Source: Clostridia bacterium (GTDB taxonomy: Bacteria > Bacillota > Clostridia > Oscillospirales > Acutalibacteraceae). From it: DNA of 64,000 nucleotides. Positions 279-57,288 of this stretch are shown here, in pieces. Location of the stretch: NCBI GenBank assembly GCA_017396515.1, contig JAFQLV010000013.1:1010-65009 (forward strand), given 5' to 3'. Numbering within the stretch: the stretch's first letter is position 1; each line of letters starts with the position of its first letter. The notes beneath the pieces were generated by a model. The model saw only the letters and a list, made by a program, of their open reading frames with translations. It made no database searches and was not told the origin of the DNA. Position numbers and translations under genes: made by a program.

Positions 279-1628
279 TTAACTTCCTTTCTTTGATATG
301 ACATAATCGTCCTTTACTCCCGCGGCAATGGTGAAGGGGTCAGGCGCGGTGCCGTCCCAGACATAAAGATATGCCACACCTGTCTGCTTGCCGTACCATG
401 TTTTGTAGGGATGTATTATATAAAACAGACCTTTGTCAACATATTCTATTCCCTTGGCACCGTTTGAGGCAAACCAGCCGTATATACCCGTGTTTTCATG
501 ACGAAGGCCGTCCTGATAAAGAGTGAGCACCTTCTGCACATCTTCGCCCTGCTGACCCTTGAGTGCCTGCTTTTTCGGCTTTATATCGCCGTCAACTATA
601 AACAGGTTATAATCAGGGAATTTATCTTCTTTCAGAGTGGTGTAAACATTGAGCATCCACAAATTAAGCTCAGGGAAATATGTCATAGTCTGCACACCGT
701 AATTTGTGTTGCCTGTATAAACGAAGTATTTGCCGGCGTGCTTTTCGGGGCCTTTGTGGTGTACCTTGCTTTCATTAAGCGGCTGTGCATATTTATCCCA
801 CCAGCCGCTGACATCATATTGCAGAAGTATCTGATAGTCATTATCCGTTCTCTCTGTCTGAGGTGTTGTGCCGCAGGAGATTGTAAGATAATGCCCCTTT
901 CCCGATGAAAAGGAAGGTCCGAAGCACATGGCATCGGTGCCTGAAACACCGTAACGCCTTGAATAGGTTCTGCCCCCGTTTTGCACTTTAGCGGAAAAAT
1001 CCTTCCACACCTCAGGCAGATGAACAGTGCGGACAAGACCGCTTTTTTCGCAATCAAGACACTTTTTATCAAGCTTTGCAACATCTATAATTGCAACATA
1101 GAGTGCCTTTTTGCCCACAGGATTAAGGGAAGCATAGACCTTGCCGTCTTTTTCGTTATAGCAAACATCGCCCAGGTGCCCCTCGAAGCCCGTAAGGGTT
1201 CCTAAGGCATTGCCCTCAAGGTCACACTTGACAAAGGTGTTTGTGTAGGAATAATAGGCAAAGCCGCCCTGCTTATCAATTGCCATACCCTGGCAGTGCT
1301 TGATATCCCATGAGCCGCCGTTGGCAAGAGATAAGGGAAAATAGTCAATAACCGAAAAGCCCTCGAACTCAATAACGGGTGCCGCAGTGGTGGCAGCGGT
1401 AGTTTCTTCAGGCTCGGTTGTCGTGGGCTTGGTGGTTGCAGGCTTGGTTGTCGTCGCCTTTTCTGTGGTACGCGGCTGAGTTGTTGCAGTAGTTGTCTGT
1501 GTTGTTGCCGCCACAAAGGGTGAGAGCACTCCCCCGTCACCGAAAACACTCAGGCTTATATAGCAGAATGACACCAGAGCCAAAACACATATGAAGCCGA
1601 GAGCAAAATTATGAAGCATCTTTTTCAT
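279..1628 (-). CDS. Secreted or membrane-anchored protein of unknown function (N-terminal hydrophobic segment, Thr/Pro-rich linker, globular domain)
   Basis: 449-aa ORF. It has an N-terminal hydrophobic stretch (FALGFICVLALVSFCYISL), then a TTTATTQPRTTEKATTTKPATTKPTTTEPEETT linker. I recognise no catalytic motif. Confidence 0.6.
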   Translation of the reverse strand: MKKMLHNFALGFICVLALVSFCYISLSVFGDGGVLSPFVAATTQTTTATTQPRTTEKATTTKPATTKPTTTEPEETTAATTAAPVIEFEGFSVIDYFPLSLANGGSWDIKHCQGMAIDKQGGFAYYSYTNTFVKCDLEGNALGTLTGFEGHLGDVCYNEKDGKVYASLNPVGKKALYVAIIDVAKLDKKCLDCEKSGLVRTVHLPEVWKDFSAKVQNGGRTYSRRYGVSGTDAMCFGPSFSSGKGHYLTISCGTTPQTERTDNDYQILLQYDVSGWWDKYAQPLNESKVHHKGPEKHAGKYFVYTGNTNYGVQTMTYFPELNLWMLNVYTTLKEDKFPDYNLFIVDGDIKPKKQALKGQQGEDVQKVLTLYQDGLRHENTGIYGWFASNGAKGIEYVDKGLFYIIHPYKTWYGKQTGVAYLYVWDGTAPDPFTIAAGVKDDYVISKKGS

Positions 1629-3030: not shown

Positions 3031-6000
3031 TTAATAATGTGCCACACCGCAATCGCAGACGGCGTTTTTCTTGAAGAGCTTCTGGAAGAAGAGAATGAAA
3101 TTGAAGAAAAATTTTTTTATGCCGGATGCGTGGCAGTTGCAGCCACATTCGTCGGCTTTGTCATAGCCGCAAGAGGTGCACTTTGAGCCGTCAAAGGTGT
3201 GGCTATGTTCAACAAGCGCATAATAACTCAAATGTTCTGTCACAAACGTAGCATAATCGCCCTCAACCTTTGCACTCACGGATTCAATCGTACCATCTTC
3301 CTTATACCAATAAACCATGATATTATTTCTGTCATAACCTACTGGTATAGGTATCATAACTTTAATTTTTCCATTTGGTTGTGCTTCCTTGCCACCTTTA
3401 TAAAGAGTAATATTATAAAGTTTATATTGCTCTGACAATCCATTCAATACTTTATCAGCTTCTATAGCAACTTGATTATTTTCAGCAACAATATATGAAT
3501 GCAAAACATATTCGGGTGACAACTCTGTTTCAGGATTTACAACAACTCCGTTTGATGTATAAGCATCATCATCATTAAGAGGTGGATAAATCACAATCAA
3601 CGGTGCATTATAACTCTTTGAAAAATCGTCTGCTTGAGCAACAATATTCTGAGCATCATTGAATGCAAACATCATTTCAATTACTTTTCCTGTAGGAAGA
3701 ATATTCCAAAGAACAGACTCTGCCAAAGATATTCCAAATTCAAGATTAATTGCATCTGTTACAATTTTAACAATATCCAAATCAAGTTTTTTCATCGCTT
3801 CTGTAAACTCTGCAACATTAAGATTAATATTTTTATATGATATGTTTTTCGAAAGAGACGAAGCATATGTTTGCACTACTTGTATTAATCCAGATTCAAT
3901 TAAATCTTTAACAATACTTTTGCTCAAATCTTTTATCAAAGCACTTTTTTCAGACATTCCTATACTTGCAGAAACTGTTGAAAGTGCAACATTGGTTGTA
4001 TATTCAATCATATTAACAAGATATGCCAATTCATTTTCACTGCAATTATTCGTAATTACTACATATCCGTTTTGAGGAATTTCTAATTGAACATGGGTAT
4101 GTTTAGATATAGAATCACCTGTATAATAATACTTGTCACCAAAAAGCTTACCTAAGTCATAAATTGAGTAACCCAACTCAGCTATATTTTCAGTTAATGT
4201 TGTTTTGTATTCTTTATACGGTTCTAAAATTTCAAAGTCGTGAATTTCACCAATTGAATTGTAAGAAACCGCAACACCATAGTGATGCTTTGAATTATAT
4301 GCATTCATATTCACATAATAGTAACCGTTTTGTTGGGTATAGTTAAAGTAGTCAATACACAAACCGTTGTAATTATAAAAATTTGTTTGTCTGCCTTTTT
4401 GATATTCTTTTGAGGGCACATTATTGAAATAATATACATTCATTTTTGGGGTTGCAGTCAAAAGTACTGTAATATAAGCACCCGTCTCAGAATCACTTAT
4501 AGTGAGGTTTGTAACACCCTCTTTTTTTGCTTTTAACTCTAATGTAAAATAAGCGCCCTCACTATTAGTGTTTGAATTTGAAAAGACGACATCAAAAATA
4601 CCCGGGTTGTCAAAAGATAAGTTAAAAGTTTTTTCCTCATAAGTTTGTTTTCCATTTTTATAGAGAGCAACCCACAAAGGCAAAATTTCATCAACAGGAA
4701 TTGAATTAGAGGAATTTACTGATTCAACTTCAAGATAGCAATCTTCACCTTTTACTGTAACAGTACAACTTTCCGTAGTTCCGTCGGAAGCCGTGGCGGT
4801 AAGTGTAACTGTTCCAAGTTTTAATGCCTTTACATCTAATGTTAAAACATGATAGCCCTTTTCTCTATAATAGAAGCCACCGCTATCTGTGATTTTTAGA
4901 ATACTCTCATCGCTACAAGACCACTCAACATCTTCATAGGTCAAATTGTCAGAATACATTTTTGCGGATAATCCCGAGATTTTAAAATTGTTTTCATCAT
5001 GTAATAACATTGATGAACCTGTGTAAATATAATAATTGTTGCCGTTATCAAAAACAATTTCCGTCTCTTGGTCTTCCGGCTCATCAGTACTAGTTGAATT
5101 ATAATGAATATTAGGACTTCCATATATTTTTTTGTCTCCTATCATTTTTTCCCAATCTTCTTGTGTGCCTGCATAAAATATATCAGAAAAATTATAGCAA
5201 CCATCAAATGCATTTCCACCTATTTCAACAACTGTTTTTGGAATATACATTGTTGTCAAATTATTACAATATTGAAAAGCATTACCACTAAGCTCTTTCA
5301 CCCCTTCTTCTAATATGACATCCGTTATTTGATGATAACCTGAGAGGCATGAGCTTACTTGTTTTATTTCTTTAGGTATTACTATTTTTCCTGCTACTAA
5401 TTCATTACAAATGTAAAATTGTTCTGCAAAATACGTTGGACGATCTGGACCATAATTTGAAGAAATATTATACCATTCAGTCAATGTGCCCGAAAAATAT
5501 ACACTTTTTACACCAAAACATTCTCTAAACGCATATGTTCCCATTCTTTTTACGCTATTGGGAATATGGATAATTTCCAAGTTTTCGCATCCTTTAAAAG
5601 CAAAACCTCCTATTTCTGTAACCCCGTAAGGAATATAAATTTTTGTTAAACTTGTCATATCTGAAAAAGCGTAAGGCGTTATATAAGTAGTTCCTGAACT
5701 TATTGTAATACTAATATTTTCTGTCGGCTCGCCTTTATAGCAATAGCAAATATCGTTAATGTACACTACGCCGTCAGGTTGAGAATTGTACCATTTTGTA
5801 TGCAAAAATGCGCCTTCCCTAATTTTTCTCACACTAGTTGGTATATAAATATTTTCCAAATAATAAAAACTCATGAACGCATATGCACTAATAGATGTTA
5901 CTCCATCTTCGACAATTAAACTTTTAACATTATAGTTTAAATCCTTCCAAGGAGTTTCATATCTTGAAGTATAATTAGTCATTTCACCATTACCGCTTAT

Positions 6001-6198
6001 AAACAGTGTATCACCATCGCGATGCCAAGTTAAGTTTTCTCCACACTTCCCGCTATTTGCTCTCGCTTTACCACCAAAGCAGTTACTAAAATTAAATTCT
6101 GGCCACTCCAACCCTACAAGCCCTTGTAGCGGTGCACTTGTCAAGCATATAACCACAACAAGCAGAGAACATAAGATTTTTTTCATTGTCTTTCCCAT
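3031..6198 (-). CDS. Large surface protein: signal peptide, BspA-type leucine-rich repeats, Ig-like (Big_2-like) domains, Cys-flanked hydrophobic C-terminal tail
   Basis: Repeated I(Y/H)IP.SV..IG..AF..C units. LTATASDGTTESCTVTV is an Ig-like segment. GGAGG lies 9 nt upstream of the ATG at 6198 (MGKTMKKILCSLLVVVICL). The tail is CGCNCHASGIKKFFFNFILFFQKLFKKNAVCDCGVAHY. Confidence 0.8.
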   Translation of the reverse strand: MGKTMKKILCSLLVVVICLTSAPLQGLVGLEWPEFNFSNCFGGKARANSGKCGENLTWHRDGDTLFISGNGEMTNYTSRYETPWKDLNYNVKSLIVEDGVTSISAYAFMSFYYLENIYIPTSVRKIREGAFLHTKWYNSQPDGVVYINDICYCYKGEPTENISITISSGTTYITPYAFSDMTSLTKIYIPYGVTEIGGFAFKGCENLEIIHIPNSVKRMGTYAFRECFGVKSVYFSGTLTEWYNISSNYGPDRPTYFAEQFYICNELVAGKIVIPKEIKQVSSCLSGYHQITDVILEEGVKELSGNAFQYCNNLTTMYIPKTVVEIGGNAFDGCYNFSDIFYAGTQEDWEKMIGDKKIYGSPNIHYNSTSTDEPEDQETEIVFDNGNNYYIYTGSSMLLHDENNFKISGLSAKMYSDNLTYEDVEWSCSDESILKITDSGGFYYREKGYHVLTLDVKALKLGTVTLTATASDGTTESCTVTVKGEDCYLEVESVNSSNSIPVDEILPLWVALYKNGKQTYEEKTFNLSFDNPGIFDVVFSNSNTNSEGAYFTLELKAKKEGVTNLTISDSETGAYITVLLTATPKMNVYYFNNVPSKEYQKGRQTNFYNYNGLCIDYFNYTQQNGYYYVNMNAYNSKHHYGVAVSYNSIGEIHDFEILEPYKEYKTTLTENIAELGYSIYDLGKLFGDKYYYTGDSISKHTHVQLEIPQNGYVVITNNCSENELAYLVNMIEYTTNVALSTVSASIGMSEKSALIKDLSKSIVKDLIESGLIQVVQTYASSLSKNISYKNINLNVAEFTEAMKKLDLDIVKIVTDAINLEFGISLAESVLWNILPTGKVIEMMFAFNDAQNIVAQADDFSKSYNAPLIVIYPPLNDDDAYTSNGVVVNPETELSPEYVLHSYIVAENNQVAIEADKVLNGLSEQYKLYNITLYKGGKEAQPNGKIKVMIPIPVGYDRNNIMVYWYKEDGTIESVSAKVEGDYATFVTEHLSYYALVEHSHTFDGSKCTSCGYDKADECGCNCHASGIKKFFFNFILFFQKLFKKNAVCDCGVAHY

Positions 6199-6216
6199 TT
6201 TGTTTTTACCTCCAAA

Positions 6217-6269
6217 TATAAAAAGTGCGTCTGCAAATGAGACGCACTGCAAAAATGGTTCTCATTTGC
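6217..6269 (-). promoter_or_regulatory. Leader terminator hairpin plus a competing upstream complement, just before the RBS of the LRR surface protein gene
   Basis: The minus strand reads AGTGCGTC-tcatttgca-GACGCACT followed by TTTTTATATTT, 0-6 nt before GGAGG. GCAAATGAGA (rc of 6260-6269) is complementary to TCTCATTTGC (rc of 6233-6242), which covers the terminator loop and the edge of its stem. Confidence 0.4.
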
Positions 6270-9133: not shown

Positions 9134-10426
9134 TCAATAGTGTGCCGCACCGCAAGCGCAGACTGCATTTTTCTTAAAGAGCTTCTGGAAGAAGAGAATA
9201 ATTTTGAAGAAGAAGGCTTTTATACCGCCTGCATGACAGTTGCAGGAGCAAGGCTCGGCAGGCTTTTCAAAAGTATAACCACAGCCGTAGTCGCATTTGT
9301 AGTCGCCGTTGGTGTCTTTGTGAGGCAGCTTATCAACACGGTCTGCCTCGTAAGCATCACCGCACTCGCAGGTGTAAACTGTGTAGCCGTATGTTGTGCA
9401 GGTGGGTGCATAGACCTTTGTCTTATAGTCGTGCTTGTGATTTAAATTATTGATATCATTAATTTTTAATGCAGGGCGAACACCGAACTCAAGTCCATCT
9501 ACCCAAAAACAGTTCGTATAGCCGGAATCTTCAATATACCAATTTTTAGCTGTATCAATACCCGGAGTACGAAGATGCCAAGGAGATCTTTGGTCATAGC
9601 CGTAAGCCGGACCGGCATCATAGACTCCCTGACACTCAGCATAATCGCTGCTTTGTGCAATTAGATTTACATGACTAACGAAACCAAAATCGCTGTTTTG
9701 TGTATCTTCATAAGACAGCAGAAATATTTTGTCTTTTGTTTCATTTCTGCTTTCTGCAGGTTCTCCAGAACATACAACATCGTTATTAAGGGTAGTAATG
9801 GAGATTTCTTTCTTTTCATTATCCGTAAAAGCCGTATTATAGAAATCATCATTGAGCCATTTTCTTATTGAGCTTGTTTCGTAATCATTTGCATAGTTTT
9901 CATAATCAGGGTCGTTGAAACAGATGTATGCACCGTCATCAGCTGTTTTAAAATAAGATGTGTTGCTGAAAGCCTGTGTGTCAATAATCGTTTCACACAA
10001 CACAAAACCTGTTTCAGGGTCAAGAACACGCCACTCAATAGGCTCAAACTTAAACCAATAGGTCATGTTGACAAAATAACCGTTATCATCTTGTCTTGTA
10101 AAACCACCATTTCTGTATTCTATAAATTTAACACCGCGATATTTATTGCCGCCATATTCTACATCGATATATCTCATCCAAGACATTTGCATTACCGCCC
10201 CATCGAGATCCCAATAATAGTCATAGCTTGTCCAGTTTTCCCACGCAGGTGCAAGTGCACCAAGCTCAGCTATCAAGGCAAAATCTTTGACCTCACTCTG
10301 CGGATATGAGCCGAACTGAATAATGTCGCCCACCTTATATTTACCACCCTCAGCATAAGCCATAGGCACTGTGCAGGCTATCATAATAACCGCTAACACC
10401 AGACTTAGTAACTTTTTTGATTTCAT
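9134..10426 (-). CDS. Secreted protein (DUF6273-like N-terminal region) with Cys-pair module and Cys-flanked hydrophobic C-terminal tail
   Basis: Signal peptide MKSKKLLSLVLAVIMIACTVPMAYA after an AGGAGG RBS. GDIIQFGSYPQ and IEWRVLD motifs are present. The tail is CSCNCHAGGIKAFFFKIILFFQKLFKKNAVCACGAAHY. Confidence 0.75.
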   Translation of the reverse strand: MKSKKLLSLVLAVIMIACTVPMAYAEGGKYKVGDIIQFGSYPQSEVKDFALIAELGALAPAWENWTSYDYYWDLDGAVMQMSWMRYIDVEYGGNKYRGVKFIEYRNGGFTRQDDNGYFVNMTYWFKFEPIEWRVLDPETGFVLCETIIDTQAFSNTSYFKTADDGAYICFNDPDYENYANDYETSSIRKWLNDDFYNTAFTDNEKKEISITTLNNDVVCSGEPAESRNETKDKIFLLSYEDTQNSDFGFVSHVNLIAQSSDYAECQGVYDAGPAYGYDQRSPWHLRTPGIDTAKNWYIEDSGYTNCFWVDGLEFGVRPALKINDINNLNHKHDYKTKVYAPTCTTYGYTVYTCECGDAYEADRVDKLPHKDTNGDYKCDYGCGYTFEKPAEPCSCNCHAGGIKAFFFKIILFFQKLFKKNAVCACGAAHY

Positions 10427-10450
10427 AAGAAAACCTCCTAATTTCTTTTG

Positions 10451-10493
10451 TGTAACAAAATGTAACATAATTATTGTAACAAACTGTTACAAT
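10451..10493. promoter_or_regulatory. TGTAACA repeat cluster (candidate XRE operator) in a divergent intergenic region
   Basis: TGTAACA at 10451, 10461 and 10475, with inverted TGTTACA at 10485. The last two form the palindrome ATTGTAACA-aac-TGTTACAAT (10473-10493). Confidence 0.5.
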
Positions 10494-14833: not shown

Positions 14834-14853
14834 TCAAAGCAGCAAGCCTTGAT

Positions 14854-15133
14854 AAAATGCAAAATTCAAAATTCAAAATGCAAAATTGCGGTCGCGGGCA
14901 CATTTCTGCCGATAAATAATCTTCTCCCGCAAAGTGAGTTGAGATAAAATACCAACTCACAAGATTATAAAAAATAAGGCAGGTCACTACCGATTTGGAA
15001 GTGACCTGCCGTTTGTTTTAAGATTGATAAGATTTGCCGTTTCTGAGCTTTATCTACGCGGAAAGAGTCTTAAGGTTAGTCAGTGGTAAAATCGCGACCA
15101 CAATTTTGCATTTTGAATTTTGCATTTTGCATT
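14854..15133 (+). repeat. Structured intergenic element, full copy A (AAAATGC arrays)
   Basis: Left array at 14854-14886 and TGCGGTCGCG at 14887-14896. CCCGCAAAG box, then terminator hairpin at 14978-15019 and GCGGAAAGAG box. CGCGACCACA at 15093-15102, followed by the inverted array to 15133. Confidence 0.9.
14978..15019 (+). terminator. Rho-independent terminator hairpin inside element A
   Basis: GGCAGGTCAC-13 nt-GTGACCTGCC followed by GTTTGTTTT. It lies downstream of dCMP deaminase. Confidence 0.7.
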
Positions 15134-15162
15134 AAAAAAGCGACTCCTCAGAGTCGCTTTTT
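15134..15162. terminator. Bidirectional terminator next to element A (serves the acidic zinc-ribbon gene)
   Basis: AAAAAA-GCGACTC-ctca-GAGTCGC-TTTTT. Confidence 0.8.
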
Positions 15163-29805: not shown

Positions 29806-30139
29806 AATGCAAAATGCTAAAAAAATGCAAAATGCAAAATTGTGGTCGCGGGGAATTTTCTGCTGATAAGTAGTTTTCTCCCGCAAAAGGAGTGGGGACG
29901 AGATGGTAAGTCTGTAGATTATAATCCTCATCCGTCACTGCGTGACACCTTCCCCTTAACTCAAGGGGAAGGTATAAATAAGGCAGGTCACTACAAGTTT
30001 TCAGTAGTGACCTGCCGTTTGTTTTAAGATTGATGAGATTTGCCTCCTCTGAGCTTCATCTATGCGGAAAGAGGCTTAAGGTTAGTGGGCGGTGAAATCG
30101 CGACCACAATTTTGCATTTTGCATTTAGCATTTTGCATT
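29806..30139 (+). repeat. Structured intergenic element, full copy B (AAAATGC arrays, extra internal hairpins)
   Basis: TGTGGTCGCG at 29841-29850 and CGCGACCACA at 30099-30108. Terminator hairpin at 29982-30025. A 71-nt block (30011-30081) is identical to the reverse complement of 56692-56762. Confidence 0.9.
29982..30025 (+). terminator. Rho-independent terminator hairpin inside element B
   Basis: GGCAGGTCACTAC-9 nt-GTAGTGACCTGCC followed by GTTTGTTTT. Confidence 0.75.
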
Positions 30140-30143
30140 CAAA

Positions 30144-56569: not shown

Positions 56570-56633
56570 ATCTATCCTCCTTTCACTTATATACACCGCA
56601 AATCTTTAAAAAAATTGCAATTTTTTTAAAGAT

Positions 56634-56910
56634 AATGCAAAATGCTAAATGCAAAATGCAAAATTACGGTCGCGACTCCACCACCCGCTGACCTTAAGCC
56701 TCTTTCCGCATAGATGAAGCTCAGAGGAGGCAAATCTCATCAATCTTAAAACAAACGGCAGGTCACTTCCAATTCGGTAGCGACCTGCTGATGCATTATA
56801 ATCTACAGAGTGGGAATTTCATCCCCACTCCCTTTGCGGGAGAGGATTGCTTATCAGTAGAAATGTGCCCGCGACCACAATTTTGCATTTTGCATTTAGC
56901 ATTCTGCATT
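56634..56910 (-). repeat. Structured intergenic element, full copy C (inverted relative to A and B)
   Basis: The reverse complement aligns end to end with A/B. GGTCGCG at 56668-56674, CGCGACCACA at 56870-56879, hairpin at 56757-56788. Confidence 0.9.
56748..56788 (-). terminator. Terminator hairpin inside element C (slightly degenerate stem)
   Basis: The minus strand reads GCAGGTCGCTACCGAATTGGAAGTGACCTGCC followed by GTTTGTTTT. It lies downstream of ridA. Confidence 0.6.
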
Positions 56911-56913
56911 TAA

Positions 56914-57288
56914 TCACACGATTGCAACTGCTTCCACTTCACAAAGCACACCCTTGGGAAGTGCCTTAACGGCCACACAGCTTCTTGCAGGTGCTGAGGT
57001 GATATATTTGGCATAAACCTCATTGAAAGCTGCGAAATCGCCCATATCGGCAATAAAACAGGTGGTCTTGACCACATTGTCAAAGCTTGTTCCCGCCTCT
57101 TCAAGAACAGCTTTAAGGTTAACCATAACCTGCTCTGTCTGAGCAGTGATGCCCTCAGCATCAACATTGCCTGTAGCAGGATTAATGGGAATCTGTCCCG
57201 ATGTAAAAAGAAAGCCGTTTGCCATTATAGCCTGTGAATAGGGGCCGATAGCAGCAGGTGCCTTGTCTGTTGAAATCTTTTTTAGCAT
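56914..57288 (-). CDS. ridA: RidA-family reactive-intermediate deaminase
   Basis: 124 aa with APAAIGPYSQA, GQIP and the RSCVAV...LPKGVLCEVEA pattern. Confidence 0.85.
   Translation of the reverse strand: MLKKISTDKAPAAIGPYSQAIMANGFLFTSGQIPINPATGNVDAEGITAQTEQVMVNLKAVLEEAGTSFDNVVKTTCFIADMGDFAAFNEVYAKYITSAPARSCVAVKALPKGVLCEVEAVAIV

Follow-up and report, generated by a model that had tools for sequence, protein, structure and literature searches.

The locus examined here raises the question of why two otherwise unrelated secreted proteins should end in the same cysteine-flanked tail of 40 amino acids. Both are encoded in a 64,000-nucleotide stretch from a Clostridia bacterium of the Acutalibacteraceae (assembly GCA_017396515.1, contig JAFQLV010000013.1, positions 1,010 to 65,009 of the forward strand), the whole of which is called the window below. 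The original prediction had described a hydrophobic segment between two Cys/His clusters and had seen in it a C-terminal sorting or anchoring signal built like LPXTG or PEP-CTERM. As set out below, the tail is a modular domain that stands strictly at the C-terminus of exported proteins, and its central helix is amphipathic. The reading favoured here, held with about as much doubt as confidence, is that it serves exported surface proteins as a self-sufficient, uncleaved and sortase-independent amphipathic membrane anchor with metal-binding caps.

In the list of open reading frames (ORFs), the two frames that share the tail lie on the minus strand at 3031..6252 and 9134..10468. Read from their GGAGG-preceded starts they encode proteins of 1055 and 430 amino acids, and both tails are present as originally quoted. 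Their features are:

3031..6198, minus strand: gene for a secreted BspA-type surface protein of 1055 amino acids with leucine-rich repeats (LRR) and immunoglobulin (Ig)-like matches; start MGKTMKKILCSLLVVVICLTSAPLQG (ATG, upstream GGAGG), stop codon at 3031-3033 (ORF list, Pfam)
3034..3153, minus strand: tail copy 1, 40 amino acids, DECGCNCHASGIKKFFFNFILFFQKLFKKNAVCDCGVAHY (ORF list, motif scan, BLASTP, profile alignment)
3130..3147, minus strand: N-terminal Cys/His cluster of tail 1, CGCNCH, tail positions 3-8 (motif scan, conservation in 223 unique tails)
3067..3120, minus strand: predicted amphipathic helix of tail 1, IKKFFFNFILFFQKLFKK, tail positions 12-29 (hydrophobic moment, AlphaFold2 model)
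3034..3057, minus strand: C-terminal Cys/His knuckle of tail 1, CDCGVAHY, tail positions 33-40 (motif scan, conservation, β-bridge in the model)
3154..3198, minus strand: Cys/His-rich spacer of the LRR protein with the upstream His/Cys knuckle HSHTFDGSKCTSCGY(DKA) (β-hairpin in the 62-residue model)
9134..10426, minus strand: gene for a secreted DUF6273 protein (P0001) of 430 amino acids; start MKSKKLLSLVLAVIMIACTVPMAYA (ATG, upstream GGAGG) (Pfam, AlphaFold2)
9137..9256, minus strand: tail copy 2, 40 amino acids, EPCSCNCHAGGIKAFFFKIILFFQKLFKKNAVCACGAAHY (predicted local distance difference test, pLDDT, 75-86 over the tail; helix at residues 402-416)
9233..9250, minus strand: N-terminal Cys/His cluster of tail 2, CSCNCH (motif scan, conservation)
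9170..9223, minus strand: predicted amphipathic helix of tail 2, IKAFFFKIILFFQKLFKK (AlphaFold2, hydrophobic moment)
9137..9160, minus strand: C-terminal Cys/His knuckle of tail 2, CACGAAHY (motif scan, model, conservation)

The span first noted, 3031-3165, corresponds to the stop codon and the last 44 codons of the LRR gene. Signal peptides are evident at the N-termini of both proteins when these are read from the likely start codons. Pfam assigns LRR_5 (E 2.5e-38) and weak Ig-like matches to the longer protein and DUF6273 to the shorter one, and on an independent metagenome contig the genes are called alike, among them one for a 1055-residue protein with LRR_5. When the two proteins are aligned by BLASTP, the alignment is confined to the ~60 C-terminal residues (61% identity, E 1e-19), with no segment outside the tail better than E 1. 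At the DNA level the tails form a 115-nucleotide direct repeat of 83% identity in a repeat scan of the window (79-83% overall), and the 40 tail codons of the two copies comprise 22 that are identical, nine with synonymous and nine with non-synonymous differences. Over the 120 nucleotides on each side, ungapped identity falls to 28-31%, which is the random level. The pair reads as a conserved protein module and not as a very recent copy. A chance or low-complexity match as the source of the likeness is ruled out because an E value of 1e-19 goes together with synonymous divergence between the tails.

The anatomy of the tail was worked out from a conservation table of 243 tails, 223 of them unique in canonical register. 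C3, C7, H8, G11, C33, C35, G36 and H39 are invariant among the unique tails, and position 5 holds Cys in 234 tails and His in nine, with nothing else in intact tails (C5 96%). The protein ends at H39 in 33 cases, with HY in 172 and with HW in 38, and nowhere else. Both clusters, CxCxCH and CxCGxxH, are found in 243 of 243 tails and one alone in none, and in 235 tails exactly 24 residues separate the two. This strict co-occurrence, together with the fixed spacing, shows that the two clusters act together. The stretch between them follows the pattern G-[IF]-x-G-[FL]-[IF]-[WF]-K-I-[IL]-x-F-F-x-K-L-F-[KGR]-x-N, in which F23 (99%), K25 (96%) and F22 (92%) are the helix residues conserved most strongly, and after the helix another 11 residues follow, including the CxCGxxH knuckle.

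Further upstream, an H-x5-9-C-x2-3-C knuckle lies within 30 residues of the tail in 82% of proteins, and tails lacking it are preceded by Pro-rich acidic linkers or by a β-domain ending in ..DHFSxYA.. Repeated extracytoplasmic Cys/His knuckles of the forms PTCTxxGYTxYTCxCG and HxDxNxDxxCDxxCG were seen in the proteins P0001-P0267 and, in the window, at 3154-3198 and 9257-9420 on the minus strand; these repeats are covered by no more than sporadic weak Pfam zinc-ribbon matches and so appear to be an undescribed spacer module.

The central segment had been described as hydrophobic. It is amphipathic: across tails the helix segment has a hydrophobic moment of 0.5-0.7, a mean hydrophobicity of 0.15-0.39 and a longest apolar run of at most six residues, with values of 0.58 and 0.23 for the moment and mean of tail 1. 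The conserved Lys residues, at positions 18, 25 and 28, line up as one narrow stripe along the helix, the broad remaining face is made of Phe, Ile, Trp and Leu, and aromatic residues stand at the ends. AlphaFold2 models were made of the complete DUF6273 protein (mean pLDDT 87) and of a 62-residue construct of the LRR tail (mean pLDDT 85.9, predicted template modelling score 0.56). Both models contain a helix of 15 residues at pLDDT 84-92, a short turn in CxCxCH and a β-bridged knuckle around CxCG...H; in the 62-residue model the helix covers residues 34-48 at a pLDDT of about 91, and residues 9-14, in the upstream knuckle, form a β-hairpin. A straight helix of 15 residues would measure about 22 Å and would place the two clusters at opposite ends. 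The models therefore describe a helix predicted to be amphipathic and surface-seeking and not a transmembrane segment. A transmembrane anchor or re-entrant hairpin was rejected on the same grounds, the helix being too short and striped with Lys.

That the tail is a domain of its own is further shown by its distribution. A profile of 40 columns, built from 51 tails, was scored against 1.84 billion representative proteins. With clusters taken at the 50% identity level, 2358 match at E <= 1e-3, and 1266 of these still do at E <= 1e-10. The match reaches the last residue in 150 of the 150 best clusters, in proteins of 68 to 3853 amino acids. In 84 carriers scanned with Pfam, all passengers are extracytoplasmic and the tail itself is covered by no Pfam family: LRR_5 (57) and LRR_8 (37) predominate, followed by DUF6273, Peptidase_M23, Flg_new and A2M (three each), GBS_Bsp-like, GDSL lipase, Lectin_C, Big_2 and Glug (two each), and RicinB and Lipase_3 (one each). 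The claim that the tail sits at the extreme C-terminus of unrelated proteins with signal peptides is thus borne out well beyond the two proteins on which it was based.

Restriction to exported proteins is equally consistent. By a simple heuristic test, 103 of 147 representatives have a signal peptide, and the others are short fragments or have their start called within a visible signal peptide or ahead of it. Among the loci listed from a scan of genomes, 71 of 76 complete tail genes encode one, 67 of them behind ATG and four behind GTG or TTG, and the other five are fragments or broken genes. Cytoplasmic carriers without a signal peptide, which would speak against a surface role, yielded no convincing example among the 147 representatives and 76 complete genes. 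The sole apparent case, P0272, is a protein of 169 amino acids from a 1-kb metagenome contig in which a TnpV-like N-terminus (PF14198) is fused, without a signal peptide, to a degenerate tail with Tyr for Cys at position 5; it probably arose by transposon insertion or as a chimera of the assembly. A cysteine-rich cross-linker of the spore-coat type was rejected because the carriers bear Sec signal peptides.

The genome scan used a degenerate DNA pattern of the tail, first verified on the window, on species-representative genomes and gave at least 116 matches. Among the matches listed, all come from metagenome-assembled genomes (MAGs) of the gut, with human, goat, sheep, cattle, deer and chicken as sources, and they are labelled Acutalibacteraceae, Candidatus Fimenecus, Ruminococcaceae/Oscillospiraceae, 'Eubacteriales' or 'Clostridia bacterium'; six loci come from one MAG. 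The impression that similar termini occur in other gut Clostridia was therefore right, and within these matches the tail appears specific to Acutalibacteraceae-type gut Clostridia. It was not found on the viral contigs of IMG/VR.

The most informative evidence on function comes from orthologous passengers. With the full-length DUF6273 protein as query, the best 120 homologues were taken, and 95 of them carry the Cys-flanked tail while 20 carry, at the same position, an amphipathic tail without Cys; one has a dockerin end and four are truncated or have no such end. The consensus of the Cys-less tails is ELNFFQKIIQWFKDLFDKLFGWMK, and on these orthologous passengers the Cys-capped tail and the bare helix share the core FFxKIIx[WF]FxxLF. 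When the Cys-less consensus NFFQKIIQWFKDLFDKLFG is set against the last 19 residues of E. coli DacA/PBP5 (K-12 record), the two align end to end with 10 of 19 positions identical, following the pattern NFFxKIIx[YW][IF]KxxFxxxFG. A hidden Markov model of the 20 Cys-less tails scores 13-14 bits on the DacA end, its top match in a local database of 860 sequences, with the next at 5 bits. Experiments have established that the last 18 residues of PBP5 form an amphipathic helix by which the protein is held on the outer face of the inner membrane, and that without them PBP5 is soluble (PMC2909392).

Bare helices also end other large proteins with signal peptides in the same MAGs, for example ...AFFQKIIDFFRNLFNL and ...GFFQKIIGFFKGLFGLTKIHE, each directly before the stop codon, and ...GFFQKIIGFFKGLFG... 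They were located as follows:

Loci L075, L002/L055, L077 and L114, C-terminal ends: Cys-less tails on ORFs of 550-1109 amino acids

At L114, Cys-type and Cys-less tail genes lie inside one 8-kb stretch. Because Cys-less tails end these other large signal-peptide proteins too, the bare helix can itself be regarded as a modular anchor. A PBP5 homologue was also sought in the tail-bearing genomes; the single S11-type match has no amphipathic tail and is uninformative.

It is from this swap of tail and bare helix in orthologues, and from the PBP5 likeness of the bare helix, that the anchor reading is drawn. The carrier would be exported by Sec and its signal peptide removed, after which the central 15-residue helix would embed in the outer leaflet of the cytoplasmic membrane. 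In the fashion of PBP5, and without cleavage or a sortase, it would tether the passenger, be it an LRR adhesin, a DUF6273 lectin-like domain, a peptidase or a lipase. The CxCxCH and CxCGxxH clusters at the helix ends would bind a metal, probably Zn2+, and these metal caps might rigidify and cap the helix, shield the free C-terminus or pair two tails. The metal, likely Zn, is proposed because the ligand positions do not vary and His is the sole substitute for Cys at position 5; it is preferred to a disulfide because two His are invariant and the number of Cys is odd. A dedicated partner, which the original prediction had expected, may exist elsewhere but is not required, since orthologues swap the tail for a PBP5-like helix that needs no processing enzyme.

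The comparison with PBP5/DacA can be carried further. Both anchors stand at the C-terminus of Sec-exported proteins and form an amphipathic helix with a broad aromatic/aliphatic face, their hydrophobic moments are alike (0.50-0.61 for the tails, 0.50 for PBP5), and the Cys-less variant ends at the same place as the PBP5 anchor. By contrast, the helix of the window tails is bracketed by CxCxCH and CxCGxxH and followed by 11 residues, the passengers are adhesin-like proteins and enzymes and not a DD-carboxypeptidase, and the hosts are monoderm Clostridia. Zinc ribbons and knuckles offer a second comparison, as they share with the tail short paired CxC and CxCG motifs, at least four invariant Cys/His, the exchange of Cys for His and the β-bridge in the model; the tail differs in that its seven candidate ligands are split by a 24-residue amphipathic helix, in being extracytoplasmic and in having no neighbour in the PDB.

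Several points weigh against a simple lipid anchor with metal caps. The helix sequence, with F23 at 99%, K25 at 96% and F22 at 92%, is conserved far beyond what lipid binding alone would need, which could mean a specific protein partner or self-association, or may alternatively stem from paralogous tails having evolved in concert within a narrow lineage. In the Cys form, unlike in PBP5, the helix is not the very C-terminus. The distance of about 22 Å at which a straight helix would hold the clusters argues against a simple clip within one chain. The PBP5 likeness was looked for on a prior hypothesis and amounts to 13-14 bits over a short stretch, too little to tell homology of the Cys-less tail and the PBP5 anchor from convergence.

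Database comparisons bear on a bolder possibility. Neither Pfam (2025) nor NCBIfam (June 2026) has a model on the tail, with isolated tails searched at E <= 10. A search of the PDB with hmmsearch gave a best E of 0.78 and no sequence relative, and Foldseek with the 62-residue model a best E of 8.8 against the PDB and no fold neighbour. No description of the tail was found in the literature on DUF6273, on surface proteins of the Acutalibacteraceae, on amphipathic C-termini in Gram-positive bacteria or on Cys-rich anchors of BspA-like proteins. The tail might represent a new metal-dependent, sortase-independent class of surface display with no structural or sequence precedent, its metal centres pairing tails or docking a receptor, through which Acutalibacteraceae-type commensals would mount large repertoires of LRR adhesins, DUF6273 proteins and hydrolases. 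This is put forward tentatively and is more doubtful than not.

A related but rather unlikely alternative sees the tail primarily as a docking or oligomerisation module, in which a metal-capped, Phe-rich helix would fit the groove of a surface receptor, much as dockerin fits cohesin, or would bundle with its like, for instance in antiparallel pairs. The very strong conservation of helix residues would be explained, and coupled clusters with a 24-residue spacer at opposite helix ends would suit pairing between chains. The hydrophobic pattern is of the a/d/e/g type and weakly resembles that of a designed pentameric coiled coil, but at E 1.9 the resemblance is not significant. It also speaks for docking that a dockerin replaces the tail in one DUF6273 homologue, and dockerins are, like the tail, small modules at the C-terminus; they bring diverse secreted passengers to the cell surface, among them surface enzymes of Ruminococcus and Clostridia. 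The tail nevertheless lacks the duplicated Ca-binding segments of dockerins, does not match PF00404 in Pfam at E up to 10 and has no known cohesin-like partner. Moreover, no receptor candidate was found near any of 117 tail-bearing loci, and the Cys-less variant resembles a lipid-binding anchor.

An enzyme-recognised sorting signal, cleaved or attached to lipid, wall or metal cofactor as the original prediction had it, fares worse and is improbable. The general arrangement fits well enough: like LPXTG, PEP-CTERM and GlyGly-CTERM signals, the tail is modular, has a three-part layout, stands at the very C-terminus of many exported proteins that are otherwise unrelated, often behind Pro-rich or repeat spacers, and occurs in several or many copies per genome. 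In LPXTG and PEP-CTERM signals a signature motif is joined to an uncharged helix, ~20 residues long and membrane-spanning, and the end is basic. The tail departs from this layout in each part. No LPXTG-like pentapeptide lies ~30-35 residues from the C-terminus in the two window tails or the 223 unique tails; no uncharged membrane-spanning segment of 15-20 residues is present, the 15-residue amphipathic helix carrying Lys at 18, 25 and 28; and in place of an Arg/Lys-rich end, 243 of 243 tails close with the conserved knuckle CxCGxxH, CxCGxxHY or CxCGxxHW. The proposed LPXTG/PEP-CTERM architecture is therefore not supported. As to the exosortase and rhombosortase systems, no curated model matches and the order of motif, helix and basic end is not found; NCBIfam, run on whole proteins and isolated tails, returned no sorting-domain match. 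Orthologues that carry a motif-less amphipathic helix instead likewise speak against this reading. ORF clustering over the 117 loci gave no recurrent neighbour, the largest non-tail cluster (12 of 117 loci) looking like an antisense artefact, although the genes for sorting enzymes often lie at other places in the genome.

The reading of the cysteines as covalent sites, for surface-layer disulfides, for thioether or radical-SAM modification or for c-type haem, is very improbable: five invariant or nearly invariant Cys in 40 residues would invite it and C3-x3-C7-H8 can be read as CX3CH, but the number of Cys is odd, C5 is swapped solely for His, two invariant His are typical of metal ligands, the hosts are strictly anaerobic gut bacteria, maturation genes are not found nearby and no family model matches, and in the case of haem the CX3CH reading leaves the invariant C5 and the C-terminal cluster unexplained.

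The closest functional precedent for the tail is thus the C-terminal amphipathic anchor of PBP5 and PBP6, a type of anchor that is also present in E. coli DacD. What is new is the Cys/His-capped form, its spread onto thousands of adhesin-like proteins and, among the matches listed, its confinement to one lineage. The hosts are abundant uncultured gut bacteria of humans and livestock whose genomes encode many BspA-type LRR and lectin-like proteins, at present annotated as 'hypothetical' and given no localisation. If the tail is a surface-retention domain, the surface proteome of this lineage could be predicted from sequence alone, and the tail would give Pfam and NCBIfam a new family model covering at least 2358 clusters. 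As an anchor it could also serve as a compact surface-display tool for anaerobes. It further poses a structural question, namely the role of an extracytoplasmic arrangement of seven Cys/His ligands around an amphipathic helix. Should the resemblance to PBP5 reflect common descent, an old membrane anchor would have been reused and elaborated.

The earlier statement that no partner is encoded near the two genes holds: the neighbours are PduL, UDG, PAP2, a YfcE-type phosphoesterase, TSCPD, MgtC, ZapA and a U32 peptidase, and no sortase is encoded in the 64 kb. A 449-residue protein at 279-1628 (minus strand) begins with a hydrophobic anchor at its N-terminus, continues through a Thr/Pro-rich linker and ends in a domain without a Pfam match; it is predicted to be another uncharacterised surface protein, anchored N-terminally.

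The DUF6273 passenger has connections of its own. Its model resembles the structure 9qa6 of the Thomasclavelia ramosa IgA peptidase (Foldseek E 3.5e-7), an enzyme described in a paper as SPXTG-anchored, with DUF6273 assigned to its N-terminal domain. DUF6273 has also been reported as a target of diversity-generating retroelements; the repeat scan of the window showed no copy resembling a template repeat.

A non-coding element of ~290 nucleotides occurs in the window in three copies that are 78-95% identical:

14850-15137, plus strand: first copy
29822-30143, plus strand: second copy, with a 50-nucleotide insertion
56633-56916, minus strand: third copy

It matches no Rfam family at gathering thresholds. 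Its ends are inverted repeats of ~50 nucleotides made of AATGCAAAATGC-like motifs, and inside lies a GC stem-loop followed by a T-run; from this layout it looks like a mobile element of the miniature inverted-repeat transposable element type.

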